This document shows, piece after piece, positions 1-61,495 of a stretch of 64,000 bases of DNA; position 1 is the first letter of the stretch; every line of letters starts with the position of its first letter. The notes beneath the pieces are model-generated. The model had not been told where the DNA came from and made no database searches. It saw only the letters and a program-made list of their open reading frames with translations. The DNA is from a virus. Made by a program: the position numbers and the translations under genes. The DNA is taken from the IMG/VR virus record IMGVR_UViG_3300031951_000022, positions 64,001 through 128,000 of that record. The stretch is one strand, 5' to 3'.

Positions 1-37
1 TTATCGACATTCTACAGGATAAACTTTAGGCCGTCAA
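1..37 (-). promoter_or_regulatory. Nested sigma70-like (TTGACG-17-TAGAAT) and sigma28-like (TAAAGTTT-12-GTCGATAA) promoter
   Basis: The reverse complement reads TTGACGgccTAAAGTTTatcctgTAGAATGTCGATAA. It would drive a gene beyond the window edge. Confidence 0.65.
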
Positions 38-211
38 CTCTGCAAAATCCACAATTCGAAGAATTTTTCCTTCCGAATCAACTTCGCAGACCGAGCAATC
101 GTACTGGTACAGGAAACGGCTCTGAATATCACGCTTCCAAACCACAACAGCTTCCGCAAGAGTAGCATATCGGGCAGTCTGAACAAAACCATCATGAGCA
201 ATTGCAAACAT
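26..211 (-). CDS. Small hypothetical early protein (61 aa)
   Basis: Purine-rich RBS (AGGAGAAAAGAAAG-ATG) and its own promoter at 232-267. Confidence 0.75.
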   Translation of the reverse strand: MFAIAHDGFVQTARYATLAEAVVVWKRDIQSRFLYQYDCSVCEVDSEGKILRIVDFAELTA

Positions 212-231
212 CTTTCTTTCTCCTAACTCTT

Positions 232-267
232 ATATCGACATTCTAGCGTCTAGTCTTTAAATTGCAA
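232..267 (-). promoter_or_regulatory. Nested sigma70-like (TTGCAA-16-TAGAAT) and sigma28-like (TAAAG-15-GTCGATAT) promoter
   Basis: Read directly upstream of the RBS of ORF 26..211 and repeated at 1216-1251. Confidence 0.65.
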
Positions 268-287
268 GAGAAAAATCTGAAATTTTG

Positions 288-305
288 TGTCAAGAGTTTT
301 TGACA
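288..305. promoter_or_regulatory. TGTCAA-N6-TTGACA palindrome (operator-like)
   Basis: TGTCAAgagtttTTGACA; second copy at 1272-1289. Confidence 0.55.
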
Positions 306-330
306 AAACTTTTCTGCCTTTTGCTAGATT

Positions 331-346
331 TGGCATATGATTTGCT
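331..346 (+). promoter_or_regulatory. sigma54 (-24/-12)-like box
   Basis: TGGCATATGATTTGCT has GG-N10-GC spacing. The variant TGGCACGGGTTTTGTA sits at the same position in repeat copy 2 (1316-1331). Confidence 0.5.
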
Positions 347-354
347 AGATCGGT

Positions 355-436
355 CGTAAGTCGTTATGCCTCAAGTACTTACGTCAAATTCGGCCCGCCG
401 CCCGCGTCGTAAGTCCTTACGCCACAAGGGTTTGCG
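355..436. repeat. Pair of 29-bp 11-7-11 imperfect palindromes (355-383, 408-436)
   Basis: CGTAAGTCGTT-ATGCCTC-AAGTACTTACG and CGTAAGTCCTT-ACGCCAC-AAGGGTTTGCG, 53 bp start-to-start. Confidence 0.85.
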
Positions 437-464
437 TCAAGTTTTTTTTGCTAGTGTACGGATG

Positions 465-791
465 TCACCCCTCCGAAAAGGGGGAGACTTCCTCACCACA
501 TGCCTGAATGGCTGTATACTGTTCGATAAGAGCCTGAACACGCTCACGCGAACCCGGCTTGCCAACCTTTACGATCATAAGATCTTCACCCCCCACAAAG
601 CGGGGATCGTTATTTTCTTTCTTTTTCTTGCCAATGTTACGCAACGCGGTACGATTGAACTTCAAAATCTTTTCGCTCTTGATTGGCCCATACTCTCCGT
701 TAGCTAGAGTCGGTTGGTGCGGAATGGCAATTCCCACAAAGCACATGCGAGCTTGACGCTTGGCGTTTTCGATAATTGCAAACTTGGTCAT
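465..791 (-). CDS. Hypothetical early protein (108 aa, MTKFAIIENAKRQ...)
   Basis: Start reassigned to ATG 791 behind an AAGGAG RBS and a TTGACA-17-TACAAT promoter (817-845). Confidence 0.75.
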   Translation of the reverse strand: MTKFAIIENAKRQARMCFVGIAIPHQPTLANGEYGPIKSEKILKFNRTALRNIGKKKKENNDPRFVGGEDLMIVKVGKPGSRERVQALIEQYTAIQACGEEVSPFSEG

Positions 792-841
792 TTCTCTTTT
801 CTCCTTAGTTGGATGAATTGTAGGGAATTGTTTTAGGGTTG

Positions 842-982
842 TCAAGAGCATTTTGCCAAAAGATTCTGAACATATCGAAGTTTAGCGACATCATACCTAA
901 TTTGCCCATTTTGCATACACAGCACAACCTTGCCATTCTCAACAAAAGCAATCGTGCTACCAGAAACTTTTACGGCTTTCAT
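842..982 (-). CDS. Small hypothetical protein (46 aa, MKAVKVSGSTIAF...)
   Basis: GA-rich leader and TTGACT-16-TAGAAT promoter upstream. Its TGA stop lies inside the next -35 box. Confidence 0.65.
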   Translation of the reverse strand: MKAVKVSGSTIAFVENGKVVLCMQNGQIRYDVAKLRYVQNLLAKCS

Positions 983-1032
983 TTTCTTTCTCTCTTTCTC
1001 TTTCCAGTATTCTAGCAAGTATTTTTTGGGAG

Positions 1033-1188
1033 TCAATAGGTTTCCGAAAGCATAGCTTCCAGTTTCGCAATCTCTAGGCGAATCTTGCGAACCATAACCC
1101 AATCCCTATCATTCTTGTAGTTATCCAACTCATAACGAAGGCCAATGATTTCTTGCATAACTTGCATCTTAACGTTTTTCATTTTCAT
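1033..1188 (-). CDS. Small hypothetical protein (51 aa, MKMKNVKMQVMQEIIGLRYEL...), not in ORF track
   Basis: Translated by hand. GA-rich leader downstream of promoter 1216-1251; TGA stop lies inside the next TTGACT box. Confidence 0.65.
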   Translation of the reverse strand: MKMKNVKMQVMQEIIGLRYELDNYKNDRDWVMVRKIRLEIAKLEAMLSETY

Positions 1189-1212
1189 TCTCTCTTTCTT
1201 TCTCTCTTACTT

Positions 1213-1427
1213 CTTATATCGACATTATACCAGCTATTCTTTAGCTTGCAAGAGAAAAATCCACATTTTTATGTCAAGAGATTTTGACAAAACTTTTGCT
1301 TGTTTTGTGGATATGTGGCACGGGTTTTGTATTTGGTTGGATTAGCTGTAACTCCTTATGCCACAAGCACTTACGTCAAATCCGCCCGCCCGCCTTGTCG
1401 TAAACCCTTACGTACCAATCACTTACG
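1213..1427. repeat. Composite intergenic repeat, copy 2, including 29-bp palindromes 1347-1375 and 1399-1427
   Basis: TGTAACTCCTT-ATGCCAC-AAGCACTTACG and CGTAAACCCTT-ACGTACC-AATCACTTACG, 52 bp apart. Promoter TTGCAA-16-TATAAT with TAAAG-15-GTCGATAT on the minus strand. Confidence 0.85.
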
Positions 1428-1477
1428 CTTAGCGTTAATCTCTTTAAGAATAGCCACGATCATAGGAATTCCGGTAT

Positions 1478-1741
1478 TCATTTGTTCACCTCATTCTGCA
1501 CAAACTTGGTTACCACCTTGCCTGTACTCTTGTCCAGCATCTTCACATTAAACTTTTGCCCACTACCATCCTCAAGCAGTACGCCGAGGATATGTCCCAT
1601 TGTAGCCGATCCGTCGTTAGCTACAAGTGTCACAAGAATTCTATCGGCCATCGTTATAGCGATACGCTTGGCGTTTGCATAGCGATAGCAGTTAAGAGGC
1701 TTCCCGTTTGAGTCGTGATAATGAATGGCATTCTTTTGCAT
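1478..1741 (-). CDS. Hypothetical protein (87 aa)
   Basis: AAGGA RBS; follows ORF 1753..1902 directly. Confidence 0.7.
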   Translation of the reverse strand: MQKNAIHYHDSNGKPLNCYRYANAKRIAITMADRILVTLVANDGSATMGHILGVLLEDGSGQKFNVKMLDKSTGKVVTKFVQNEVNK

Positions 1742-1752
1742 GGCTAATTTCC

Positions 1753-1902
1753 TTAGAGAATCGTACCATCACCACGAATACGATACATGATACCGCCGAT
1801 ACTGTACAGGCTGATACCCTCGCCCATATGCTGCACAAACGTAGCCGAATATCCATGTCGAGCAACCAACCGGCGAACTGTATTTTGTACTTGAATGGTC
1901 AT
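1753..1902 (-). CDS. Small hypothetical protein (49 aa, MTIQVQNTVRRLVARHGYS...), not in ORF track
   Basis: GAGGAG RBS and TTGACG-16-TAGAAT promoter (about 1927-1954). Confidence 0.7.
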   Translation of the reverse strand: MTIQVQNTVRRLVARHGYSATFVQHMGEGISLYSIGGIMYRIRGDGTIL

Positions 1903-1968
1903 TTCTTTTCTCCTCTGTATGATTCTATTCTAGCAAGATTTTTTAGATCGTCAATACTATACAGAAGA

Positions 1969-2127
1969 TCAGCCGTCATCATATCCTTCTTCGAACTTCT
2001 CCAGCATCTTAGCCCTAAGATCGTCGTTCACGTTCATGTTTTCGCAATATGCTTCAAACTCGTTTGAGGAAGCCTGATCGTATCCCATGTTGTAAGCCGC
2101 AATCATCAGTTCGTCAATCTGGTTCAT
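1969..2127 (-). CDS. Small acidic hypothetical protein (52 aa, MNQIDELMIAAYNMGYDQ...), not in ORF track
   Basis: GA-rich leader; promoter at 2158-2199. Confidence 0.7.
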   Translation of the reverse strand: MNQIDELMIAAYNMGYDQASSNEFEAYCENMNVNDDLRAKMLEKFEEGYDDG

Positions 2128-2157
2128 TTTCTTTTTCTCTTTCTTTCTTGTTGATGA

Positions 2158-2199
2158 ATTCTATACAGTTCTTATCGGCTTGTCAAGTCTATTTCTTGA
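2158..2199 (-). promoter_or_regulatory. Overlapping sigma70-like (TTGACA-17-TAGAAT) and sigma28-like (TCAAG-15-GCCGATAA) promoter
   Basis: The reverse complement reads TCAAGaaatagacTTGACAaGCCGATAAgaactgtaTAGAAT. Confidence 0.65.
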
Positions 2200-2335
2200 G
2201 ATTCTCAAAAAACTTTTTCACAGCCAAATCATTCTGAACCATATCCTTATTCACGATTGGCATGGCATATGCCTTAGCAACCATAACCTTTTGATTCATT
2301 CTCTTAACCGCATTTTGCATCGTCTTATTCATCAT
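2189..2335 (-). CDS. Small basic hypothetical protein (48 aa, MMNKTMQNAVKRMNQK...), not in ORF track
   Basis: GA-rich leader and TTGACT-17-TATAAT promoter (2362-2390). Confidence 0.65.
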   Translation of the reverse strand: MMNKTMQNAVKRMNQKVMVAKAYAMPIVNKDMVQNDLAVKKFFENLKK

Positions 2336-2420
2336 CTTCTTTCTCTCTTTCTTATGCCACAATTATACCTACATCATCGTCCAAAGTCAAGCCCCACCTT
2401 GAAAATATTTTTGGATTTTT

Positions 2421-2585
2421 CCTAAGTTATTATCCTACAAGCACTTAGATCAAAAAGATTTTTTATGATTGCTCAATGGACACGTTACACAATGAGAAAG
2501 TGTGCGTAAGTCTTTGTGTCGTAAGGGTTTACGTCAAATTTTGCTGCCCTGTTTGTCGTAAGTCTTTGTCCCACATATGGTTAGG
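2421..2585. repeat. Three further 29-bp palindromic sites (2421-2449, 2505-2533, 2557-2585)
   Basis: CCTAAGTTATT-ATCCTAC-AAGCACTTAGA; CGTAAGTCTTT-GTGTCGT-AAGGGTTTACG; CGTAAGTCTTT-GTCCCAC-ATATGGTTAGG. The last two are 52 bp apart with a TCAAATT linker. Confidence 0.75.
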
Positions 2586-2689
2586 GGGTTTTTTTGTTTC
2601 TGATTGGTACTGGAAGATTTCTCCGAAAAAGCCCCGGTGGTCCAAAAACAATAAGCCACCCCATATATAATTGGCCAGTTTATTAGCCC

Positions 2690-3922
2690 TTATCGTCTAA
2701 TATAACCAGAATAGGCAATAGCTTCTTTTTGATTCACGGCGTCCAGAATCTTCACCACTACCAGATTCCATTTTTTACTAAAATATTTTTTAGATAGATT
2801 CAAGGTAAACTGTGATCCGTTGCCACTATTTGCTACTACCACATATCTTGTAGTGTTGTTGATACTAACCTGTACTTTAAGCTTGTTACTCATATTCGAT
2901 GAATCATAAGCCCACCCACTAATAATACTTTTAGATACTTTATACAGCCCATAAACGATCTTAGGCTGTACTACAATTTGCACCGGAGGTTGATAACTTT
3001 CTCCCAATGGAACCATGTTTTTTAATAAAGTAATTGCCCCACCCACATTCAAAAAACCATAACCCACCTTATCTGCTAAATTTTCCACATATGATGCTGC
3101 TGATAATATTGCGCTTTTAATCTGAGAGGCCACATAATTAATATTAATACTTTTCAACAAAGCTACCGCCCCACTAACAAAAGGAGCCGCCATGCTAGTG
3201 CCACTAACATATCCATAACTATTATTTGGTAATGTAGAATAGATACCCGTTCCTGGAGCAGCAATATCTACACTATTTTTTCCATAGTTAGAATAATTAG
3301 CCAAAGTTAAATCCCTATTAGTAGCGGCCACACTAATAGTATTAGATAATTTATAAGAGCTAGGATATCTTGGAACCAAATCATTATTTGAAGAGTTATT
3401 ACCAGCAGCGGTCACAACCACTATACCCAGATCATTAGCTCTTTTTATAGCACTTTCTAAAATTAAAGAAGATGATGTTCCTCCACCCCAGCTTAAATTA
3501 ATAGAAGCTATATTAATGCCTTTTAATTTCATATTAGTAGCATAATTAATAGCAGAAGCGGCAGCGCCCGTATATCCTAGTCCGCTACTATTTTGAAACT
3601 TTAGAGGCATAATACTAATATCATTAGATACGCCGGTTACTATACCAGCCACATGAGTACCATGATAAAAATCATCTTGAGGAATATTATTATTGCTTAC
3701 AAAATTCCACCCACTAATATCATCAATATAGCCATTGTTATCATTGTCTATATTATCCCCCGCTATTTCTTTAGTATTAATAAAAATATTGTCTTTAAGA
3801 TCAATATGATAAAGATCAATACCAGAATCAACAATGGCCACTATGGGCTGAGAAGACGAGGTCGAACTTAATACTTTTTTATTTTCTAGTTGTTCTATGC
3901 CCAGAGCGCAGTCCTTGCTCAT
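2690..3922 (-). CDS. S8 subtilisin-like serine protease with a Planctomycete-type LEPRxLL-like N-terminal motif
   Basis: Catalytic motifs VAIVDSG, HGTHVAG, AAGN and GTSMAAP. N-terminus LGIEQLENKKVLS. AAGGAGG RBS and TTGACT-16-TAGAAT promoter (3951-3978). Confidence 0.93.
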   Translation of the reverse strand: MSKDCALGIEQLENKKVLSSTSSSQPIVAIVDSGIDLYHIDLKDNIFINTKEIAGDNIDNDNNGYIDDISGWNFVSNNNIPQDDFYHGTHVAGIVTGVSNDISIMPLKFQNSSGLGYTGAAASAINYATNMKLKGINIASINLSWGGGTSSSLILESAIKRANDLGIVVVTAAGNNSSNNDLVPRYPSSYKLSNTISVAATNRDLTLANYSNYGKNSVDIAAPGTGIYSTLPNNSYGYVSGTSMAAPFVSGAVALLKSININYVASQIKSAILSAASYVENLADKVGYGFLNVGGAITLLKNMVPLGESYQPPVQIVVQPKIVYGLYKVSKSIISGWAYDSSNMSNKLKVQVSINNTTRYVVVANSGNGSQFTLNLSKKYFSKKWNLVVVKILDAVNQKEAIAYSGYIRR

Positions 3923-3979
3923 TTCATAATCCTCCTTGAAAGATATGAGGATTCTAACCCAGAAAAAGCAATAGTCAAG

Positions 3980-4019
3980 AAAAAAAATGAGGGATCCCGA
4001 TTTGGCCGAGATCCCCCAT
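3980..4019 (-). terminator. Intrinsic terminator after the HTH gene
   Basis: GGGATC...GATCCC stem followed by a T8 run on the minus strand. Confidence 0.6.
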
Positions 4020-4028
4020 TAATTTCAT

Positions 4029-4241
4029 TCAAACTACAGTATTTTCACCAGCACTTTTCTTTCTACGACCCCTGGGCTTGCTAACTCCCAGCTTTCGTCT
4101 TTGACGTCTAATCATACCATAAGTTACAGTTTCCCCAGTCATTTCACTCAGCTTCTTAGCTAGCTCATCATCACTAAAACCATTAAGATTGTCCTTAATA
4201 TACTGCAATTCAACATCTGTCCATCTTTTATATGTAGCCAT
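4029..4241 (-). CDS. Small HTH/Myb-like DNA-binding protein (70 aa, MATYKRWTDVELQYIKDN...)
   Basis: WT.xE...I....SD.ELA..L...T...IR..RRKLG pattern. AAAAGGAAA RBS places the start at 4241. Confidence 0.75.
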   Translation of the reverse strand: MATYKRWTDVELQYIKDNLNGFSDDELAKKLSEMTGETVTYGMIRRQRRKLGVSKPRGRRKKSAGENTVV

Positions 4242-4262
4242 AAAATGTTTCCTTTTTGACAA

Positions 4263-4295
4263 AAAGTGTACAAAACATATTATATAGTACACTTT
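4263..4295. promoter_or_regulatory. Inverted pair of AGTGTA motifs (putative overlapping, oppositely oriented phage-sigma promoters or an operator)
   Basis: AAAGTGTAC-N15-GTACACTTT between the divergent HTH and sigma genes. The same RGTGTA motif precedes late genes. Confidence 0.55.
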
Positions 4296-4320
4296 GGTCA
4301 CTTTAATGCAAGAGGTAAAA

Positions 4321-4470
4321 ATGAATATTGACCCCATTATCCCCTCTATTCTCCACATAACTGCTAAAGAAAATGTGGATATAAATGCTGATTTAACAGC
4401 AGAACAGATCAAATCCATAGGCCAACTACTAGAAGAAGCTCATGAAGAAGAAAAAGATTCACAAAGTTAA
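4321..4470 (+). CDS. Small acidic hypothetical protein (49 aa, MNIDPIIPSILHIT...), not in ORF track
   Basis: GAGGT RBS; overlaps the start of the sigma gene. Confidence 0.5.
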   Translation: MNIDPIIPSILHITAKENVDINADLTAEQIKSIGQLLEEAHEEEKDSQS

Positions 4471-5062
4471 CGAAGACGAATTTCTTAAGATAATTGATAT
4501 TATCGCCAAAAAATTAGCCTATAAATTCAAGTTTGGATATCATGATTTTGATGATATGAAGCAACAGATAAGCATCTTTGCGCTAGAAGGTCTTAAAAAT
4601 TATGATCATAAAAGACCACTAGAAAACTTCCTTTGGACCCACGTAAGAAATCGCCTCTTCAACTATAAAAGAGATAATTACCAAAGGCCCGACAAACCAT
4701 GTTTAAGCTGCCCCCTTTACGACCCTCACTGTAAAAATAGTAGTAGTGGATGTGTTGAATATAATAATAAAAATGACTGTAGTTTGTATTCATCGTGGTT
4801 ATCAAGAAATAGTACCAAAAAGAACCTTATGCACCTTACAACAATAGACGAAGTTAAAAACTACGGGAATGCTTTTAGTAGTGATGATAATTTATTGTTT
4901 GATAATATTTCAAATAACGAAATTTTATCCTTAGTAGAACAACATCTTATGGGCGAAGAAAGATCCACTTATATTAAGGTAAAGGGTGGCGCCAAGGTTA
5001 GTAAGGCAGACATGGACAAGCTAGTTGAAACCATAAGGGAGATAATAAGACTTCATGGCTAA
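4442..5062 (+). CDS. Phage-encoded RNA polymerase sigma factor (sigma70 region 2-like) with a Cys-rich insert
   Basis: DDMKQQISIFALEGLKNYD...LENFLWTHVRNRLFNYKRD resembles region 2 and is followed by CLSC..HC..C..C. Confidence 0.75.
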   Translation: MKKKKIHKVNEDEFLKIIDIIAKKLAYKFKFGYHDFDDMKQQISIFALEGLKNYDHKRPLENFLWTHVRNRLFNYKRDNYQRPDKPCLSCPLYDPHCKNSSSGCVEYNNKNDCSLYSSWLSRNSTKKNLMHLTTIDEVKNYGNAFSSDDNLLFDNISNNEILSLVEQHLMGEERSTYIKVKGGAKVSKADMDKLVETIREIIRLHG

Positions 5063-5876
5063 AAAACGTGGACAACTTAGTTTAGACGAAGAAAAATTTA
5101 TCAGAGAAAATATAGAAAGTTTAAGCGTAGAAGAAATTGCTGATGCTCTTAATCGTAATGTTGATCCAGTTAATAGATACATTGATGAAAATCAATTATA
5201 TGATATTAATGACAAGAGCGAGAACGAGATTCTCAGGCGCAAGCTACGCAGCAAAACCTTTTGGAATGAGATACTACGTCAGTTTGACGAAAATACTGGC
5301 GAATTACAATACTTTGAAGATACGTGGATTGGCCTAATTAAACAGTTCAGAGAGGACGTTTTACCCGCCGAAGAACTTCAAATCAAACAGTTTATCACCA
5401 TAGATATTCTTATTAACAGAAGCATGAAAGAACGTAAGCGTCACATTTCCGAGACAGAAAAATTACAAAAATTAGTTGATAAAGAATACGAAAAACTTGA
5501 AGACCAAAGAGACATTCCCAAACTAGCTAATTTAGAAGCTCAATTAAGTTTCGCCCGCAACAGTATAGCAAGTTATACAAATGAATATACTAAGCTTTTA
5601 AACGAGCAACAAAAAATTAGCAAAGATCTTAAGGCTACTCGTGAACAGCGTATTAAAAGAATTGAAGATGGTAAAAGTTCTTGGGTTGGATTGATAAGAA
5701 TGTTGGAGGATGAAGCTATTAGAGAAAAAGAAGGACGAGAAATGGAAATTTTGGCTATGGCTACACAAAAGGCTAAAAATGAACTATATGACTATCACGA
5801 ATATGCAGATCGTAGAGTTGATTCACCAATTTTAAGTCCAGACTCTATAGGTTATAATAATGAGAAACTATCGTGA
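5055..5876 (+). CDS. Putative terminase small subunit (N-terminal HTH + coiled coil)
   Basis: SVEEIADALNR HTH, long helical region, position upstream of terL. Confidence 0.45.
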   Translation: MAKKRGQLSLDEEKFIRENIESLSVEEIADALNRNVDPVNRYIDENQLYDINDKSENEILRRKLRSKTFWNEILRQFDENTGELQYFEDTWIGLIKQFREDVLPAEELQIKQFITIDILINRSMKERKRHISETEKLQKLVDKEYEKLEDQRDIPKLANLEAQLSFARNSIASYTNEYTKLLNEQQKISKDLKATREQRIKRIEDGKSSWVGLIRMLEDEAIREKEGREMEILAMATQKAKNELYDYHEYADRRVDSPILSPDSIGYNNEKLS

Positions 5877-6126
5877 TCCTCAATATATTCAGTGGAGAAA
5901 AGATGTTAGAAAAAGAGACCACAATTGTTGTCAATGGCCCGGTTGTAATAAAAAAACCAAGCTACAGGCTCATCATATTCAAAAGTGGTCAGATTTTCCA
6001 GGACTAAGATATCATATAGATAATGGCATTACACTATGTAAAGATCATCACAACATGATAAAGGATAACGAAGAAAACTATAGCGGATTCTTTTTTAAAT
6101 TAATTCTAAATAAAAGAGGAAAATAA
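5860..6126 (+). CDS. HNH endonuclease (packaging-associated type)
   Basis: WR..V..RD...CQ..GC...AHHI...NGITLCKDHH motif next to the terminase. Confidence 0.88.
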   Translation: MRNYRDPQYIQWRKDVRKRDHNCCQWPGCNKKTKLQAHHIQKWSDFPGLRYHIDNGITLCKDHHNMIKDNEENYSGFFFKLILNKRGK

Positions 6127-6127
6127 A

Positions 6128-6712
6128 ATGCAACTAGATAAACCAGTAACAATTATCCCACCATCATATATTTTAAACAATCAAGTAATACATCCTAATC
6201 CTTTTGTTTTAAAAGAACTAGATATCACTTATACAGACAATCCTAAAGACAAAAGAATCTATCTCACCATCAAGCCATTTCCTATTGGTGTACAACTATG
6301 GGGTCCAGAATCTTACGACGCAGTTGGAGACTGGACTCAAAAGCAAGCAGAAGACAGATTAAAAGCTTTAATTAATAATGAGATACATAAGTTTTTAGGA
6401 TTATTGTTTAAGCAAACCGGAGATACTGACCCCGATGGTCCAGGCAGCATTTTAGCAGGAATGTTTAGTGGACTAGGAATCAAAACGTCTCCAACTTGCT
6501 CTTGTAAAAAACACATGAGAGAAATGAACCTTAGAGGTAATGATTGGTGTGAAAATAATATGGATACTATTATGAGTTGGCTTAGAGCAGAGTCTGAAAA
6601 GCGTAAATTGCCATTTGTAGAAATTGTAGCAAAAACTATTGTGCGTAGTTCTATTAAAAAATCCCGTAGACTTTTAGAAAAAAGAATACTAGCTAATGCC
6701 CAAACAAGATAA
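6128..6712 (+). CDS. Hypothetical protein with a C-terminal CSC/WC domain shared with 48801..49241
   Basis: G.GS.L...GIK.SPTCSC...M...G.DWCENN.DTI..WL..E..KR.LPF. Confidence 0.7.
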   Translation: MQLDKPVTIIPPSYILNNQVIHPNPFVLKELDITYTDNPKDKRIYLTIKPFPIGVQLWGPESYDAVGDWTQKQAEDRLKALINNEIHKFLGLLFKQTGDTDPDGPGSILAGMFSGLGIKTSPTCSCKKHMREMNLRGNDWCENNMDTIMSWLRAESEKRKLPFVEIVAKTIVRSSIKKSRRLLEKRILANAQTR

Positions 6713-7184
6713 CTTCACAATCATAGTTGACACAAGAGAACAACTTCCTTGGGAATTTGGTTTTCATGTAACCAGCAAAAAGAAGCTGGATACTGGAGAT
6801 TATAGTATGGAAGGATTCGAAAGTCTTTTTACAATAGAGCGTAAGCGCAGCGTTAGTGAGATAGCAAATAATATTACAGAAAGTCGATTCAAAGATGTTC
6901 TGGATCGTATGAGCAAAATCCCTCACAGTTTTATGTTGATGGAATTTGGTATAGATGAAATTTATAATTTCCCGGTCGGCAGCGACATCCCCAAGAAAAT
7001 GTGGGATAAGCTAAGAATTAGTGGTAATTATATTATGAAATATTTAGTAGAGGCCCAACTTAATCATAATATTCACATACTTTTTTGCGGAGATGCAGAA
7101 ACAGCAGAGCGTACAGCAGTAGGTATTATGAAAAGAATTTACGAGAAATATGGAAAACAAACAGAAAACAATAACAACGTTTGA
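6696..7184 (+). CDS. ERCC4/XPF-family nuclease (possible resolvase)
   Basis: IIVDTREQ...LDTGDYS...IERK signature. Confidence 0.88.
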   Translation: MPKQDNFTIIVDTREQLPWEFGFHVTSKKKLDTGDYSMEGFESLFTIERKRSVSEIANNITESRFKDVLDRMSKIPHSFMLMEFGIDEIYNFPVGSDIPKKMWDKLRISGNYIMKYLVEAQLNHNIHILFCGDAETAERTAVGIMKRIYEKYGKQTENNNNV

Positions 7185-9183
7185 TGATGCTTGGCTAGGT
7201 CTAGGTGATCTTAGTCAAATAGTTATCGACCACAACCCTATGATTGGTCGAAACAAGGAAGATATAGAAAATCCAGACCTACATCTATTGAGACTGTTGA
7301 GAGATCCCAAATACTTCGGATCTACTGCTAAACTATTATTCAATATAGAACTTCACCCTATACAGATAGCTATCTTGCAAGAATTTTGGCTAAGACCATT
7401 TCCTATGTTCATTGCATCTCGTGGTTTTGGTAAGTCGTTCTTAATGGCTATGTATTGTACATTAAAATGTATTTTGGTACCCGGAACAAAGATTGTTGTA
7501 GTAGGTGCTGCTTTTAGACAGAGCAAAATTATTTTCGAATATATGGAAACGCTATGGAGAAATAGCCCTATCCTAAGAAGTGTTTTTAATGGTAATGATG
7601 ATGGTCCACGACGTGACGTAGATAGATGTACTATGAGGCTTGGCGAAAGTTGGACAATCGCTGTTCCTATGGGCGATGGTAGTAAAATTAGAGGCTTAAG
7701 AGCGCATATTATTATTGCTGACGAATTTGCCTCTATTTCTCCTGATATTTATGAGACGGTAGTTTCAGGTTTCGCTGCCGTATCTGCTAGTCCAATACAA
7801 AATGTTAAAGAAGAAGCTAAAAAGAAAGCGATGACAGCAGTAGGATTATGGAATGATGAATTAGAAGCAGTGCAAATTAAAAAGGGTAACCAAGCTATCA
7901 TAGCCGGTACTGCTGACTATAGTTTTAAGCATTTTGCTACTTATTGGAAAAGATATCAAGCTATCATTAATAGTCAAGGAGATAAGCAAAAGCTGGAAGA
8001 AATTTTTAAGGGAGAAGTACCAGATAGTTTTAACTGGAAAGACTATAGTATAGTACGCATACCATATGAAATTATTCCTAAAGGCTTCATGGATGACAAA
8101 CAAGTTAGTCGTGCCAAAGCTACTATTCATACCGGCATATATAATATGGAATATGCGGCGTGTTTTACAGAAGACAGTGACGGTTTTTTCCGTCGATCAC
8201 TAATAGAAAGTTGTGTGGTACATGAAAGCAAACCAATTGTGGTTAATGGTACTCCTGTTTTGTTTGATGTTAGTACCAAAGGAAACCCAGACCTTCAATA
8301 CATTTATGGCATTGACCCAGCTTCTGAAAAGGACAATTTTAGTATCGTAATATTAGAGGTTCATAAAGATCATAGTCGGCTAGTATATTGTTGGACCACT
8401 AATCGTAATAATTTTAAAGATCGTCAAAAAACTGGATTAATTAACGAATATGATTTTTACGGTTTCTGCGCTCGTAAGATACGCAACCTAATGAAAGTAT
8501 TCCCTTGTGCTCGTATTGGATTAGATGCTCAGGGTGGTGGTGTGGCAATTGAAGAAGCATTACACGATCCAGGCAAACTAGAAGATGGTGAATCCTTAAT
8601 ATGGCCGGTTATAGACATTAATAAACCCAAAGAAACCGATGATCAGCAAGGATTACATATATTGGAATTAGTACAGTTTGCAAGGGCTGATTGGACGGCA
8701 CAAGCTAATCACGGATTAAGAAAAGACCTAGAAGATAAAGTATTACTTTTTCCAAGATTTGATCAAGTCAGTTTGGCTCTTGCTTTAGACAAAGAAGGTA
8801 AAGATATTATGTCTGCGGATCTTATGAATCTTTACGACAGTGAAAGCGAATGTATTTTAGAGATTGAAGAGCTAAAGAATGAATTGACCACTATTGTTAT
8901 GACACAAACTAGTACTGGACCTAACGCTAGAGATAGGTGGGATACCCCAGAAGTTAAGCTGCCTAATGGAAAAAAGGGAAAACTAAGAAAAGATAGATAT
9001 AGCGCATTAATAATCGCTAATATGTTAGCTAGACAATTAAGTAGAACTTTAGAGCCAACTACTTTTGAGGTTATTGGTAATAATCTAGATATAGTAGAAA
9101 AGAAAGAAGGCCAAATGTATAAGGGGCCAAACTGGTTTATTGATGGAGCAAATGCTAACATATATGGTGGAATTTATAGATAA
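7150..9183 (+). CDS. terL: Terminase large subunit
   Basis: Walker A ASRGFGKS, Walker B IIIADEF, nuclease motif YGIDPAS and C-terminal KDRYSAL; upstream of the portal. Confidence 0.93.
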   Translation: MENKQKTITTFDDAWLGLGDLSQIVIDHNPMIGRNKEDIENPDLHLLRLLRDPKYFGSTAKLLFNIELHPIQIAILQEFWLRPFPMFIASRGFGKSFLMAMYCTLKCILVPGTKIVVVGAAFRQSKIIFEYMETLWRNSPILRSVFNGNDDGPRRDVDRCTMRLGESWTIAVPMGDGSKIRGLRAHIIIADEFASISPDIYETVVSGFAAVSASPIQNVKEEAKKKAMTAVGLWNDELEAVQIKKGNQAIIAGTADYSFKHFATYWKRYQAIINSQGDKQKLEEIFKGEVPDSFNWKDYSIVRIPYEIIPKGFMDDKQVSRAKATIHTGIYNMEYAACFTEDSDGFFRRSLIESCVVHESKPIVVNGTPVLFDVSTKGNPDLQYIYGIDPASEKDNFSIVILEVHKDHSRLVYCWTTNRNNFKDRQKTGLINEYDFYGFCARKIRNLMKVFPCARIGLDAQGGGVAIEEALHDPGKLEDGESLIWPVIDINKPKETDDQQGLHILELVQFARADWTAQANHGLRKDLEDKVLLFPRFDQVSLALALDKEGKDIMSADLMNLYDSESECILEIEELKNELTTIVMTQTSTGPNARDRWDTPEVKLPNGKKGKLRKDRYSALIIANMLARQLSRTLEPTTFEVIGNNLDIVEKKEGQMYKGPNWFIDGANANIYGGIYR

Positions 9184-56324: not shown

Positions 56325-56352
56325 ATTATAAAAAGTGGGGCGTAGGTGTCAA
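56325..56352 (-). promoter_or_regulatory. Consensus sigma70 promoter for ssb (TTGACA-16-TATAAT)
   Basis: Both hexamers match consensus; the -35 box contains the dnaE-C TGA stop. Confidence 0.75.
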
Positions 56353-58748
56353 GTTCTAGCTACGTAAGCCTTGTCTACAATAAGGCCATCTCCGCTCTTA
56401 GACTTTGACCCCTTAACAATAATAATATTTCCGACGAACAACAGGTTTTTGTATTCGCTATATTTTTCTGGAAAAAACACGATAGAGTCAATAGATCCCG
56501 TGGTGTCCGTCATTGTAACGAAAGCCATTTCTGCTCCAGGATTTTTACCGGTTTTGGTTTTCGTAACATTAATAAAGTCTATCTCTCCACCAAGTATAAG
56601 ATTGTCTTTTTGTGTTGTGGTTTTCAGTTCTTTGCAATTAATATTAGTCATACTAATATCATACATATCAATCTTAGAACAAGTAATAGAACAACCCAGC
56701 AACACATCCTCAGAATCTGCTAACCACTCAGGACTATCGTCTAGAGAATAAGGAGGATTATTTAATGACACTATCATATCTTGGATATTGCTTTTGCGGT
56801 TTTTATTAATTCTAGGCAGTCCTAGCAGAAACTCTAGACAGCCCTTTAAGTCTTTAAAAGAGACTAGATGCACACTGATATGCTCTATCTCTTTTTTGGT
56901 TAAGCTGCTAATTAAATTATATTCAAATAGCATCTTATTGCGAGTCATAGGCAAAAAGCTTAAAGCTCCACTTTGTATCAAAGCCTTTGCTGCTGTAGAA
57001 TTAATATTGTTTAATACCAAAAATAAAAACTCTAACCATGTTGTTTTGGTCAAGTCCATTTTAGATATTATAGATATTAGCTTATCATATACTGATTTGC
57101 CGACACCCTTAATGTCTGTTAATCCAAAATATATAGTATTATTTTTTAAGATAAATAGCTCATTTTTGTTTCTAATATCTGGAGTTTTAACCAATACGTC
57201 CATTTCATTGGCGTTTTGAATTAACTCCTTAATTTCTGCTTGAGGATCTATTTTATCCTTAGCAAATCTTAAATATGATGCAAAAAAGATTTTGGGGAAG
57301 TGTGCTTTAGTATAGGCGGATAGATATGCATTAATAGCATAGCTTACTGAGTGAGACTTATTGAACGAATATCTTTGACTCTTTTCGATCCAACTAAAAA
57401 TCTGTTCTGCCTCATCAACTGTTACAATGCCTAGCTTTTGAGACCCCTCCAAGAACTTACTTTTGACCTTTGCCATTTCTTCCGGTTTTTTCTTACCAAT
57501 AGCCTTTCTTAACATATCTGCTTCTTGCAGATTAAATCCAGCTATAGCCTTAGTTATTTCCATAGCCTGTTCTTGATATACCATTTCCCCATAGGTGTTT
57601 TGCAAAGAGTCTTTCAGAGCTTCGTGAAAATAGTCCACAGACTCTAATCCATTTTTTTTGTCTATATAATGATTAGATACTGTTTTACCATCTCTCACAG
57701 CCTCAAGACAATTATGAACTATTACATTACCAGCAATAAAATTGTGGTGGGGCGACTCCATAGATATATCATAAACCTTTTTATATCCAGTGCTAATTTT
57801 ATCTATATAAGTAGCCCATTTACAGTCATCGCTATAAGATAGTCTATATTTTTTTCTTGCTTCTATAATAGTATCTATATCAATATTACCTTCTGAATAT
57901 TCTCTATGATGGTTTGGACATAAATAACAAAGATTTTCAACATCATTATTGGTATGTCTATTTCCTTCAAGGTGATTAACATCTAAAGATCCTTTATCCC
58001 AATCACAAAAAACACATCTGTATTCATAGTTTTGATAACATCTTAATTTATATGATTTAATACCATCAATATTATCAATACTAATTTTTGAAGAATGTCT
58101 GGATTTAATCTTTTTCTTTAATTTTTTGGTTCCGTTTTTCTTTCTTATAACCAATATCCTCATTCCGGGCTTCATATCTTTAAGCTCTACCCATCCATTA
58201 GGAGTTAAAAGCTTATGGTCATCTGTACATTCTACTTTATACCAATTGTATGGTAATGTATTAGTTTTTCTTTCATTAGTCTTTATCTTGATCTTGAAAC
58301 ATTCTTTAATACCACTATCAATAATATCTAATATTTTGTTTGAAACTAATTTTTTAGACTTTTCATCATACGATATAATTCTGTCATATTGACGATCTTT
58401 AAATAGTTTTTCTATTGAAATAGTTTTATTTCTTAAACGACCATCGGTATGAGTATAATAGCCTACTAAGATCTTAGTATCTCCAGCAATACACCCAGGT
58501 CTCATAATACTAATCAGGGCAGAAAGCTGCTCTATGTTTTCTGGCTTTAGTTTTTTAGCCATAGACCTTCCCAGTCTAGACTCTAGCTGAAAACAACCCT
58601 TGGTATTACCGTCAGATATAAGATCCCACGTTCTTTGACATTCCAGATTAATATTTTCTATAGAAGAATCGAACTTTATACTCAGTCCATTATTCTGCTC
58701 TACTATATCAAAGGAACATCCACAAGGGTATTGGTATTTTTTAGACAT
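56349..58748 (-). CDS. dnaE: DNA polymerase III alpha, C-terminal half (fingers/HhH/OB), intein-containing
   Basis: GCFQLES, MRPG, TYG.MVYQEQ, AD.LRKAIGKK, YSFNKSH, FGL.DIKGVG and KTG..MAF OB motifs. Confidence 0.92.
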   Translation of the reverse strand: MSKKYQYPCGCSFDIVEQNNGLSIKFDSSIENINLECQRTWDLISDGNTKGCFQLESRLGRSMAKKLKPENIEQLSALISIMRPGCIAGDTKILVGYYTHTDGRLRNKTISIEKLFKDRQYDRIISYDEKSKKLVSNKILDIIDSGIKECFKIKIKTNERKTNTLPYNWYKVECTDDHKLLTPNGWVELKDMKPGMRILVIRKKNGTKKLKKKIKSRHSSKISIDNIDGIKSYKLRCYQNYEYRCVFCDWDKGSLDVNHLEGNRHTNNDVENLCYLCPNHHREYSEGNIDIDTIIEARKKYRLSYSDDCKWATYIDKISTGYKKVYDISMESPHHNFIAGNVIVHNCLEAVRDGKTVSNHYIDKKNGLESVDYFHEALKDSLQNTYGEMVYQEQAMEITKAIAGFNLQEADMLRKAIGKKKPEEMAKVKSKFLEGSQKLGIVTVDEAEQIFSWIEKSQRYSFNKSHSVSYAINAYLSAYTKAHFPKIFFASYLRFAKDKIDPQAEIKELIQNANEMDVLVKTPDIRNKNELFILKNNTIYFGLTDIKGVGKSVYDKLISIISKMDLTKTTWLEFLFLVLNNINSTAAKALIQSGALSFLPMTRNKMLFEYNLISSLTKKEIEHISVHLVSFKDLKGCLEFLLGLPRINKNRKSNIQDMIVSLNNPPYSLDDSPEWLADSEDVLLGCSITCSKIDMYDISMTNINCKELKTTTQKDNLILGGEIDFINVTKTKTGKNPGAEMAFVTMTDTTGSIDSIVFFPEKYSEYKNLLFVGNIIIVKGSKSKSGDGLIVDKAYVART
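57711..58493 (-). mobile_element. Cis intein (261 aa) with an HNH homing-endonuclease domain
   Basis: RPG|CIAGDT...CTDDHK...VYDISM...HNFIAGNVIVHN|C. Internal CVFC...VNHLEGN..NN..ENLCYLCPNHH. Confidence 0.92.
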
Positions 58749-59442
58749 TTTCGTTCTTGGTGAAGGCGTTCTTAAACTTAATCTTTTGTCCCAAATTTCT
58801 ATGTAACTTTAAAAATCTAATAATTATTTCAGCGGTATCTCTAACGTCCTTTAAGGCGTCGTGGGCACCTTCTTTGGAAATTCCGAAATAATCTCGCAAA
58901 CTATCAAGAGTGTAGCTTTTTAAGTCATTATTATTTTCGAACCAATAAAAGATTAAATTCATACCATCAATAACATCTCTTGGATAAAAAATATCTGTTC
59001 GCCCTTCCTTATTTAGGTTGCCGTACTTATTACTAAGCCGATCAACAATATGAAGGTCGAATCTGTTGATATTGTATCCCGCCGCAATAGGAGCGCTAAA
59101 TTGGCTTTTCTTAGAACTTCTGGAATGATATTTATCCAGATAGTTAATAAACATCTTCCATGAGTGTTCTTGTTTTGGATATTGATGCCAAGCCTTTAAA
59201 ACATCATCTTGGGAACACCCCTTAACTTTAGAGTGAAATTCCAAAATGTCGGTTTCGTATCTATGGTCTTTGTTATTTTCTAGAACTTCTGGCTTGAAAT
59301 GCATATTAAATTCTGACCCATCAATAACCTCTAATTGTAGAGGATCTATCATAAGTGCAGCAATTTGTACAGGACTGCAAACCCTAGGATCAGAACCGTC
59401 TGTTTCAAAATCAAAAACGCAAATCTTATTATAGTTGATCAT
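58741..59442 (-). CDS. DEDDh 3'-5' exonuclease (DnaQ-like)
   Basis: FDFETDG, GYNI.RFD and HDALKD motifs. Confidence 0.9.
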   Translation of the reverse strand: MINYNKICVFDFETDGSDPRVCSPVQIAALMIDPLQLEVIDGSEFNMHFKPEVLENNKDHRYETDILEFHSKVKGCSQDDVLKAWHQYPKQEHSWKMFINYLDKYHSRSSKKSQFSAPIAAGYNINRFDLHIVDRLSNKYGNLNKEGRTDIFYPRDVIDGMNLIFYWFENNNDLKSYTLDSLRDYFGISKEGAHDALKDVRDTAEIIIRFLKLHRNLGQKIKFKNAFTKNENV

Positions 59443-59614
59443 TTACTTCTACTTCTACATTGGGTGATAGAAACGTTGTATTCTTTTCATTTGCTGTTGC
59501 ATGAGCATTGATTGATCGACAGCAGCTTACTTTTACTGTTGCAGTCTTCTTATATTCAATACCTTTGTGTGTGAATGTTTCGCCTTCTGCAATTTCTGAA
59601 AACTTCTTAATCAT
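59429..59614 (-). CDS. Small hypothetical protein (61 aa)
   Basis: Coupled overlaps on both sides; KKFSEI..GETF...G.EY.K...SCC. Confidence 0.7.
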   Translation of the reverse strand: MIKKFSEIAEGETFTHKGIEYKKTATVKVSCCRSINAHATANEKNTTFLSPNVEVEVNDQL

Positions 59615-61495
59615 ATTTCTACTCCTTCTATTAAGAGATCTTGTATTGTCATAATCTTATCTAACATCGCTACGCCTAAAACATCAAATTTAATAATACC
59701 AATAGCTTCTAGGTCTTGCATTTCCATTCCGGCAATTAGCTGATTATTTTTACTATCAAAAACCATAGGACATAATTCGCTTAATGGCTCTGAACTAATA
59801 GCAATACCAGCCGCGTGTTTGGACTGATTAGACTTAGTTCCTTCTAATCTAATAGCCTGCTCAAACCTTTTTGCCAACGGCCCCTGTAGTTCTCCTTTGT
59901 CGTCAATATAGCACCACTCCTTGAGCTTTTCAGAATTATTTTCTAAAGCCCAACGAATAATAGATGCCTCTCCAGTTTCTTCTTTCATTTCTTGTAGTTC
60001 ATCTGCAATCTTAGCTTCATCTGGAATATTTTTAGTAATACGATTCATTTCTTCAAAACTAATATTACCATATACTCTTAATACGTCCTTAAGAGCACCT
60101 CTTCCCTTGATGGTGTTAAAGGTAACCATTTGAGATACTTTATCATGACTATACTTATCTTTGATATATTGAATAATTACTTCACGCTTATTAATAGGAA
60201 CGTCAACATCAATATCTGGCATACTAATACGATCTTTGGTGTTTCGGCCAGAATTATAAAATCTATCAAAGAATAGGTTGTATTTGATTGGATCAATACT
60301 GGTAATACCTATTAGATATGATACCAGACATCCAGCCGCACTTCCTCGTCCCGGTCCCGGAAGCCACCCACTTGTTCGCACATAATTTACAATATCTTGT
60401 ACTATCAAAAAGTAGCTACTTAAATTCGCCCCCTGTAAAACATCTAGTTCATATTTGATTCTATCTACATATTGTTGTTGATCGTCTTTTGGTATGATAT
60501 TAGCAATTTTTTCTTTCCAGCCCTTACGACAAAGCTCTCTAAGATATTCTGCGTCATCAAAACCTTTCGGACAATCAAATGGAGGTAGTTTAGGCTTGCT
60601 TAGGATATCATATTCTTCTATAAGACTAGCCACATATTGTGTGTTTGCTATTTCTTCTTCTGTATGCAAGGCTGCCATTTCTTCTTGAGAAAGAATATGG
60701 TAATTATCTGATGTGAAAAAGCATCCCATAGGCACATCTTCGTCATTACTAATCTTACGACTAATTTCTGGAAATGTAGTTTTCAAATTGTTACAGAGCA
60801 AAATGCGCTGATCAATAGCGTCCTCTTTACGACAATAATGTGCGTCTGGAGTACAAATAACTTTTGTATCTGTTTGCTTACCAATTTCTCTAATAGCTTT
60901 TGTAAGCTCTTTTTGTACGGTTAGATTTTCGGCATCCATTAGTTGGGCCTCTAAAAACACACCACTAAAGTGCTTCTTAAGATCTAAAACATGATTCTTT
61001 CCTAGCTCTAGCCAGTTTGGTTTGAGTTGATAATTATCCAGAATAGTGTCAGCTAGGGTTGATCCTAGATGTCCGGTGATAGCAATTAAATTACCGTCAT
61101 TTAAAGCATAGAGGCTTTTTAGGTCTAGTCTAGGCTTATGATAATAATTCTCCGGTCTATTGGATTCTGATACTATACGAACGAGAGTTTTCCATCCATC
61201 ATAGTTTTTAGACAAAATTAGAAAATGGCTTAATTCTTTATTATGCTTTTCTTTAATGGTTGGATCATTGTCGCAAATATAAAGCTCACAACCAAGAATC
61301 GGCTTAATGCCAGCCTGTTTCATTGCCATATAAAATTTAACAGCACCGGCAATATTACCATGATCTGTGATAGCACATGCTGTTGCTCCAATCTCTTTGC
61401 ATCTTTCTGCCATTTGTTCTGGTTTAGATAGTCCATCCAAAAGTGAGAACATAGCCCACTTAGGAATGGACATGAAGCGGTATATAGTTGCTCAT
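59611..61495 (-). CDS. dnaE: DNA polymerase III alpha, N-terminal half (PHP/palm/thumb); reading frame interrupted at 61453-61462
   Basis: MSNYIPLHVHS* in one frame and MFSLLDG...ITDHG...GCE...DAHY...GPGRGSAAG...PDIDVD...KHAAG...KFDVLG in another. Confidence 0.9.

Follow-up and report, generated by a model that had tools for sequence, protein, structure and literature searches.

Paired 11-7-11 palindromes before early promoters in a lineage of large uncultured phages, candidate docking sites for a DNA-bending protein

INTRODUCTION

What do closely paired palindromes do between the tiny early genes of an uncultured phage? The question is raised by a 64,000-nucleotide (nt) stretch of viral DNA (the window), which comprises bases 64,001-128,000 of the single 157,712-bp IMG/VR record IMGVR_UViG_3300031951_000022, rated 100% complete. 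Seven palindromic sites with 11-bp arms and a 7-bp spacer lie at its left end. An earlier interpretation made from the letters of the window (the sequence-only reading) proposed an integron-like system in which a tyrosine recombinase would excise, amplify or shuffle early-gene cassettes, with phased binding sites for a dimeric phage protein at an origin or packaging region as the fallback. We find that the element is a real, widespread and oriented regulatory DNA module and not an integron-like system. Its palindromes are very probably protein sites on duplex DNA that belong to the architecture of promoters, and their occupant may be a host protein of the IHF/HU type that bends DNA.

RESULTS

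A double palindrome recurs throughout the early region

In the double element, two 29-bp palindromes (hp1 and then hp2) are joined by a linker of 23 to 24 bp that is made up almost wholly of G and C in its core. The seven sites, the 52- to 53-bp pitch of their pairs and the conserved linker, all claimed by the sequence-only reading, were borne out. Five sites (355, 408, 1347, 1399 and 2505) fit the pattern with three or fewer mismatches, where shuffled sequences lead one to expect 0.01, and the other two (2421 and 2557) fit it with 4 mismatches each. The measured pitches in the window pairs are 53, 52 and 52 bp, and the linker is GC rich, with the family consensus TCaAA..cGGCCGGCCcc.cTcGC. The site at 1399 scores better on the minus strand (1 versus 3 mismatches) and is therefore a flipped copy. 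The mutual likeness claimed for the 7-bp spacers held for recent duplicates only; the 23 spacers comprise 20 different sequences, some of them inverted (GTGGCAT versus ATGCCAC). The sites and linkers of the window are as follows.

355..383, hp1 of double element A, 11-7-11, 0 mismatches, a member of the family model
384..407, linker of element A, GC rich and 24 bp long, placed in the alignment of the 11 copies, folding no greater than shuffled
408..436, hp2 of element A, 53 bp from hp1, 1 mismatch
1347..1375, hp1 of double element B, 2 mismatches
1376..1398, 23-bp GC-rich linker of element B, from the alignment of copies
1399..1427, hp2 of element B, flipped, 3 mismatches on the plus strand and 1 on the minus strand
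2421..2449, lone palindrome, separated by 30 nt from the downstream -35 box at 2390, 4 mismatches
2505..2533, hp1 of double element C, which heads the array when this is read along transcription, 0 mismatches
2534..2556, degenerate, less GC-rich linker of element C, from the alignment of copies
2557..2585, degenerate hp2 of element C, 4 mismatches

A scan of the whole genome, a step that the sequence-only reading had suggested, showed that the array extends well beyond the window edge. Over the 157,712 bp scanned there are 11 double palindromes and one lone site, at genome positions 51,422-66,585 (window -12,578 to 2,585); all 11 pairs share one orientation, and none lies outside this 15-kb early region. 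The seven sites of the window are therefore the right-hand end of a larger array. The genome has a G+C content of about 35%, and the early array forms a GC-raised island of 41-43%. The 15-kb region contains tiny minus-strand genes with sigma-70-type promoters close to consensus in front of them; between the pairs of the window are the blocks of three and four tiny open reading frames (ORFs) already described, all on the minus strand. In the direction of the genes, a gene end is followed by hp2, the linker, hp1, a promoter and the next genes. No canonical terminator was found beside the elements on the minus strand.

The element has one polarity and a helically phased distance to the promoter

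Elements of the family, collected as described in the next section, were searched for promoters with the pattern TTGACA-N16-18-TAnAAT. Of 400 elements, 122 have a promoter on the side of hp1 that is directed outward, compared with 17 that have one on the hp2 side and 3 or 4 whose promoter fires toward the element. Between hp1 and the -35 box, the gaps fall mainly into classes of 28-29 nt (28 cases), 39-40 nt (21 cases), 49-51 nt (10 cases) and 61-63 nt (6 cases), and each distance class holds unrelated sequences. The Rayleigh statistic is R = 0.66 at a period of 10.8-11 bp (n = 96); it treats many homologous promoters as independent, and its nominal P value is inflated. Five copies in this genome have gaps of 18, 27, 30, 40 and 59 nt, and the lone site at 2421 has one of 30 nt. 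The minus strand of window 9-2390 holds seven clear sigma-70-type promoters (10-11 of 12 positions) and a weaker one at 267-240. The first promoter after each element and the other signals near hp1 in the window are as follows.

240..267, minus strand, sigma-70-type promoter TTGCAA-16-TAGAAT, the first after element A
1224..1251, minus strand, sigma-70-type promoter TTGCAA-16-TATAAT, the first after element B
2362..2390, minus strand, sigma-70-type promoter TTGACT-17-TATAAT, after the lone palindrome and element C
331..346, plus strand, sigma-54-type -24/-12 box TGGCAT-N5-TTGCT, 8 nt before hp1 and aimed into it
1316..1330, plus strand, weaker sigma-54-like box TGGCAC-N5-TTGT, before element B
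288..305, TGTCAA-N6-TTGACA palindrome in the gap from element A to the promoter, with a second copy at 1272-1289, kept in related contigs

Family-wide, sigma-54-type boxes within 200 nt of hp1 point toward it in 35 cases and away from it in 14, where 0.15 would be expected by chance. Those of this genome are at 331-346 (+), 1316-1330 (+) and genome position 63017 (+), 5-11 nt before hp1, and some of the family's boxes stand as face-to-face pairs. A transcript from an inward box would begin inside the palindrome, and no sigma-54 activator encoded by the phage was found. The lead promoters also carry, across the family, CGATA in the spacer between the -35 and -10 boxes and a cAAAGTTT-like motif just upstream of the -35 box, which suggests that these are further conserved promoter signals.

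The element marks a large uncultured phage lineage

An exact-pattern scan of IMG/VR matched at least 120 contig stretches, mostly with pairs joined by the same GC-rich linker. A covariance model built from the 11 copies gave 569 matches, both strands counted, in 100 of those stretches, and a profile search raised the family to at least 428 distinct elements at 121 loci of uncultured-phage contigs. Among the 428 elements, 368 have both palindromes clean and 357 are non-identical. The contigs that bear the element share a phage sigma factor, a TerS-like gene and a terminase adjoining the arrays. The DNA polymerase and terminase match known phages at 25-34% identity only, and no match among isolated phages was found for the sigma factor (tblastn) or for window 1-6000 (blastn). 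Since no isolated phage is close and the neighboring genes are shared, the phage belongs to a large uncultured lineage.

The sigma factor, a protein of 206 amino acids encoded at window 4442-5062 (+), matches Sigma70_r2 with an E value of 8e-5, just under the Pfam cut-off, and is the protein most often conserved beside the arrays (32 loci). To the right of the early array lies a conserved block, namely:

5055-5876, plus strand, TerS-like protein with an N-terminal helix-turn-helix, no Pfam hit
5860-6126, 6696-7184 and 7150-9183, the rest of the block: HNH gene, ERCC4-domain nuclease and large terminase

Directly upstream of the array, in AT-rich DNA, is a gene for a subtilisin-like (S8) protease of 410 amino acids (2690-3922, minus strand). 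Farther along the window, a DnaE-type DNA polymerase is split into two ORFs (56349-61473, minus strand), the second of which bears an HNH endonuclease-like segment.

Conservation and variation point to a site on duplex DNA

Across the 357 non-identical elements, the columns T3A4A5 (95-100%), T10T11 (93-99%), A19A20 (89-94%) and T25T26A27 (95-100%) are near invariant. The columns between these TAA-N4-TT and AA-N4-TTA positions are far freer, and C1, G2, G6 and T7 are also well conserved. At position 9/21 of hp1, 50% of elements have a G.G mismatch, and mismatches make up 13-16% of stem cells across the family. The sequence-only reading had raised the question of whether variation favors RNA pairing, and the answer goes against pairing. 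When right arms were exchanged among the copies within each genome, arms paired with their own partners no better than with swapped ones (z = -3.5 for hp1, -0.6 for hp2 and -4.3 for positions 8-9), and in the 11 copies of this genome 78.5% of cells were paired versus 79.8% in shuffles. At position 2 of hp2 both arms do change together within genomes (z = 3.9). The complementarity at positions 8-9 is below chance.

Structure searches agreed. RNAalifold predicted no structure for the 11 copies, and an Rfam scan of window 1-3000 with E values up to 10 returned only noise. The hairpins have a stability of only -6 to -7 kcal/mol, and the whole element folds equally on either strand. A third hairpin in the GC-rich linker was considered and dropped, as it has no extra stability (-6.2 versus -5.8 kcal/mol for shuffled sequences). 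G.U-type pairs occur twice as often on the gene-antisense strand as on the other (706 versus 328); there is no covariation within the hairpins, and we read this excess as a conserved asymmetry of the half-sites and not as pairing. The single terminator-like match is at chance level and on the noncoding strand.

A fixed polarity and helical phasing characterize protein assemblies on duplex DNA, and given the fixed columns, the one polarity and the phased distance to the -35 box, we therefore conclude with high confidence that the palindromes are a protein site on duplex DNA. The fallback of the sequence-only reading, phased sites for a dimeric protein, thus stands in substance, with the location changed: the sites are at promoters, not at an origin or packaging site.

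The half-sites resemble the core of the IHF consensus

Read outward from the center, the half-site is (Y)AA-N4-TTA, which corresponds to the CAA-N4-TTR core of the IHF consensus WATCAANNNNTTR, and 41-46% of the family's palindromes match at least 8 of the 9 positions of WATCAANNNNTTR in one half. The H'44A mutation affects the center T of TTR (10.1101/382655), which lies 6 bp from the nearest kink, the two kinks being about 9 bp apart (PMC5829579). Transferred to the palindrome from sequence geometry alone, the kinks would fall between T10 and T11 and between A19 and A20, exactly 9 bp apart. These predicted kink columns rank among the best conserved, and the predicted site covers some 29-37 bp. 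No HU/IHF gene (Bac_DNA_binding) scored above the cut-off in this phage or in 30 relatives that bear the element, 10 of which are complete, and the binder would therefore have to be the host's.

Single palindromes were found in bacterial genomes of many phyla. Five bacterial genomes have 3-11 copies each, compared with 0-1 for a reversed control pattern. Some copies lie 3-21 nt past the 3' ends of tRNA or tmRNA genes, and at two loci (L191 and L193) a converging integrase gene follows the tRNA or tmRNA gene and palindrome, which is the position of the H' site in lambda attL. Another copy lies inside an insertion sequence (IS), 16 nt before the -35 box of the transposase. Sigma-54-type boxes are enriched 7-fold within 150 nt of bacterial copies and mostly point away, and at one locus (L216), next to a divergently oriented activator gene, the palindrome has upstream repeats on one side and a -24/-12 box on the other. 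These tRNA/integrase, IS and sigma-54 contexts are classic IHF positions. Some of the bacterial matches are due to chance, inside conserved ribosomal-protein operons.

In a Verrucomicrobiae genome (L246, L251 and L256), a DDE-transposase IS is repeated, and its copies carry at least six near-identical palindromes, located 16 nt before a TTGACT -35 box. At three other loci (L157, L220 and L230) a tRNA gene and the palindrome are followed by an ordinary terminator, a hairpin with a T run, so the palindrome is not the terminator there.

A host DNA-bending protein of the IHF/HU type is accordingly only our leading guess for the binder, tentative and unproven, and we would give it somewhat less than an even chance. 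Several points weigh against it, besides the inflated phasing statistic. The copies of this genome match WATCAANNNNTTR at only 5-8 of 9 positions, little above the AA-N4-TTA core alone, and the family mean of about 6.5 is near the value from the core alone. The conserved C1, G2, G6 and T7 are outside the Escherichia coli IHF consensus, and known IHF sites are asymmetric. Near-consensus promoters should need no activator, and the element is present at only about one promoter in three or four. The three full copies of the window lie 87, 95 and 114 nt from the promoter, outside the main distance classes; in two of the three, the extra space holds the TGTCAA-N6-TTGACA palindrome and the sigma-54-like box. 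In a sample of Planctomycetota the palindrome was present in only 8 of 60 genomes (14 sites versus 2 control sites), a sparse occurrence more like that of a mobile-element motif than of a housekeeping host site.

Alternative explanations

If the palindromes acted as hairpins of RNA or single-stranded DNA, they could be terminators, processing sites or an antisense small RNA made from the sigma-54-like box. They do lie between gene ends and the next promoter in a region lacking canonical terminators, a T run follows copy A, some bacterial copies closely follow tRNA or tmRNA genes, and on the antisense strand, where G.U pairs are in excess, hp1 folds slightly better (-6.6 versus -5.2 kcal/mol). 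However, that strand is not the mRNA strand, the U tract is not consistent, the stems are weak and without covariation, mismatches are conserved, a sigma-54 transcript would start within hp1, Rfam has no match, three bacterial loci have an ordinary terminator after the palindrome, and helical phasing to a promoter is a property of DNA; we consider the hairpin explanation improbable. The inverted 11-7-11 arms, and a few sites that seem flipped, recall core sites of site-specific recombination, integron-like or served by host XerC/D, at which cassettes would be excised or shuffled. The sequence-only reading had noted that the window has no recombinase, and the search of the complete genome agreed, finding no Phage_integrase (PF00589), Resolvase (PF00239) or Y1 transposase (PF01797); none of 10 relatives that are at least 90% complete has a tyrosine recombinase (PF00589). 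Because 20 of 23 spacers are distinct, there is no common overlap for strand exchange. The elements also keep a single orientation and order, synteny often crosses them, and the cassettes own their promoters, most of which have no element. The integron-like claim is thus not supported, and we regard recombination core sites as extremely improbable. In a comparison of related contigs, a kind of check also proposed by that reading, alignment breakpoints were enriched near elements: among alignments of at least 80% identity, 21% of breakpoints fall within 30 nt of an element versus 8% for random positions (2.6-fold). Related contigs are mostly collinear with the early region at 65-86% identity, and homology blocks often pass through the elements. 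The enrichment is real yet no more than expected from gene boundaries, because about a quarter of these carry an element. The element and its promoter could instead be a portable homology patch for the exchange of early cassettes by homologous recombination, with protein binding secondary, a role described for the promoter-early stem-loops (PeSLs) of T4-type phages (PMC4122927). Repeated composite units that border tiny variable ORFs, the breakpoints and one block out of order (locus L075) would agree with this, but invariant columns, fixed polarity and helical phasing are not required by it, and the enrichment and collinearity just described count against it. As the main explanation we hold it quite improbable; a PeSL-like role as a side effect is possible.

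A phage-encoded dimeric regulator of an unrecognized family, for example an early protein or one delivered with the DNA, is a serious rival to the host IHF/HU bender, though on balance we think it unlikely. An early protein of this kind would act like protein p4 of phage phi29, which shuts off or reprograms early transcription from upstream inverted repeats. The evidence for a duplex site (columns, phasing and no selection for pairing) serves this explanation equally. In its favor, the element is specific to one large phage lineage that shares the sigma factor, TerS-like gene and terminase; the conservation of C1, G2, G6 and T7 exceeds what IHF reads; the joint change at position 2 of hp2 would fit two classes of site; and in bacteria the motif is sporadic and often in mobile elements. 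On the other hand, a Pfam scan of 20 early and adjacent proteins found no DNA-binding domain, although small proteins often escape Pfam, and the only nearby helix-turn-helix-like gene (4029-4241) has a different palindrome in its own promoter. The identical motif across bacterial phyla, at integrases, IS and sigma-54 promoters, is also hard to credit to one phage protein.

The different palindrome, AAGTGTAC-N15-GTACACTT, is overlapped by divergent promoters at window 4242-4320, between the gene for the 70-amino-acid helix-turn-helix-like protein (4029-4241, minus strand) and an ORF of 49 amino acids, after which comes the sigma gene. It looks like the operator of a separate switch. For the 11-7-11 element, a resemblance to CIRCE, the BirA operator, TyrR boxes, dif, attC R boxes and MOBQ nic sites was weighed and dismissed, because the spacing or arm orientation does not match. 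A full-text literature search for the arm sequences returned unrelated primers only, and a keyword search for such repeats returned nothing relevant.

DISCUSSION

A possible mechanism and its meaning

The explanation that we favor as a whole, to which we give about an even chance, is that the double elements are paired docking sites before early promoters with an IHF/HU-type occupant; this estimate blends our high confidence in a duplex site with the lower one in the occupant. Architecture, polarity, phasing and the absence of selection for base pairing are observed; the identity of the binder and the effect on transcription are what we infer here. Two dimers would dock 53 bp apart, five helical turns, and so on the same face of the helix. 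The roughly 18 bp between two 35-bp footprints would be the GC-rich core; DNA of this kind resists kinking and disfavors nonspecific HU/IHF binding, and the rod could fix the register of the dimers. Two sharp in-phase bends could then draw the DNA into a tight loop immediately before each early unit's lead promoter. Such a loop might insulate that promoter from upstream transcription and supercoiling or bring upstream DNA to RNA polymerase. As the element lies between early transcription units, a whole number of turns upstream of the next sigma-70 promoter, the promoter could be shaped or insulated from the first minute of infection with no phage protein required. In phage Mu, an IHF site supports the early promoter Pe (PMC3820752).

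With considerable doubt we also put forward a broader view. The 29-bp palindrome might be an unrecognized, near-universal high-affinity site for the homodimeric HU/IHF of many nonenterobacterial phyla, used singly by integrative elements, insertion sequences and sigma-54 promoters. In the very large phage lineage, two copies would have been joined into a rigid unit with two bends, which would fold the DNA before early promoters and so insulate or activate them from within the genome. With 22 strong sites on every genome copy, the array might also act as a sponge that takes up the host protein.

If the favored explanation is true, a lineage of large uncultured phages runs its earliest gene expression through a fixed two-site DNA-folding module read by a host protein. 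The element would then be a handle for early regions and lead promoters in metagenomic phage contigs and a candidate recognition sequence for the nucleoid proteins of little-studied phyla, and it would offer a testable case of promoter control by helical phasing outside model organisms.

Comparison with known systems

The core sites of tyrosine recombinases (dif, loxP and integron attC) likewise have inverted arms of about 11 bp and an asymmetric spacer of 6-8 bp. The phage element differs in having no recombinase and no shared spacer, in its fixed orientation, and in being tied to promoters and not to cassette ends.

The BIME/RIP elements of enterobacteria consist of two REP palindromes that flank an IHF site, the REPs being hairpin forming and mobilized by RAYT transposases. 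The likeness is that of an intergenic two-palindrome unit with a defined linker, a place between transcription units and a tie to nucleoid proteins. In the phage element there is no Y1 transposase (PF01797) and no selection for pairing, and the IHF-like signal is in the palindromes themselves, not in the linker.

PeSL cassettes combine a terminator stem-loop with a promoter (PMC2839356, PMC4122927). They resemble the phage element as repeated composite regulatory units between tiny variable early ORFs, in a plastic region, and as possible points of exchange. The phage element differs in its phased pairs, weak stems, lack of pairing selection and lack of a U tract; it stands before one promoter in three or four, and its link to breakpoints is weak.

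Compared with the IHF/HU sites of Mu Pe, sigma-54 promoters and lambda attP H', the phage element differs in being symmetric, with the consensus in both halves, in forming rigid pairs around a GC-rich spacer, 11 per genome, and in the extra bases C1, G2, G6 and T7; its binding by such a protein is predicted. The likeness lies in the CAA-N4-TTR core of each half, the predicted 9-bp kink distance, the predicted footprint of about 29-37 bp and the placement before early promoters, always on one face of the helix. The bacterial copies, which are single, also lie where such sites do, between an att core and int or just upstream of -24/-12 boxes. What is new is an element present in at least 428 copies in 121 contig stretches, a variant both on the sites of architectural proteins and on the composite regulatory cassettes of phages.

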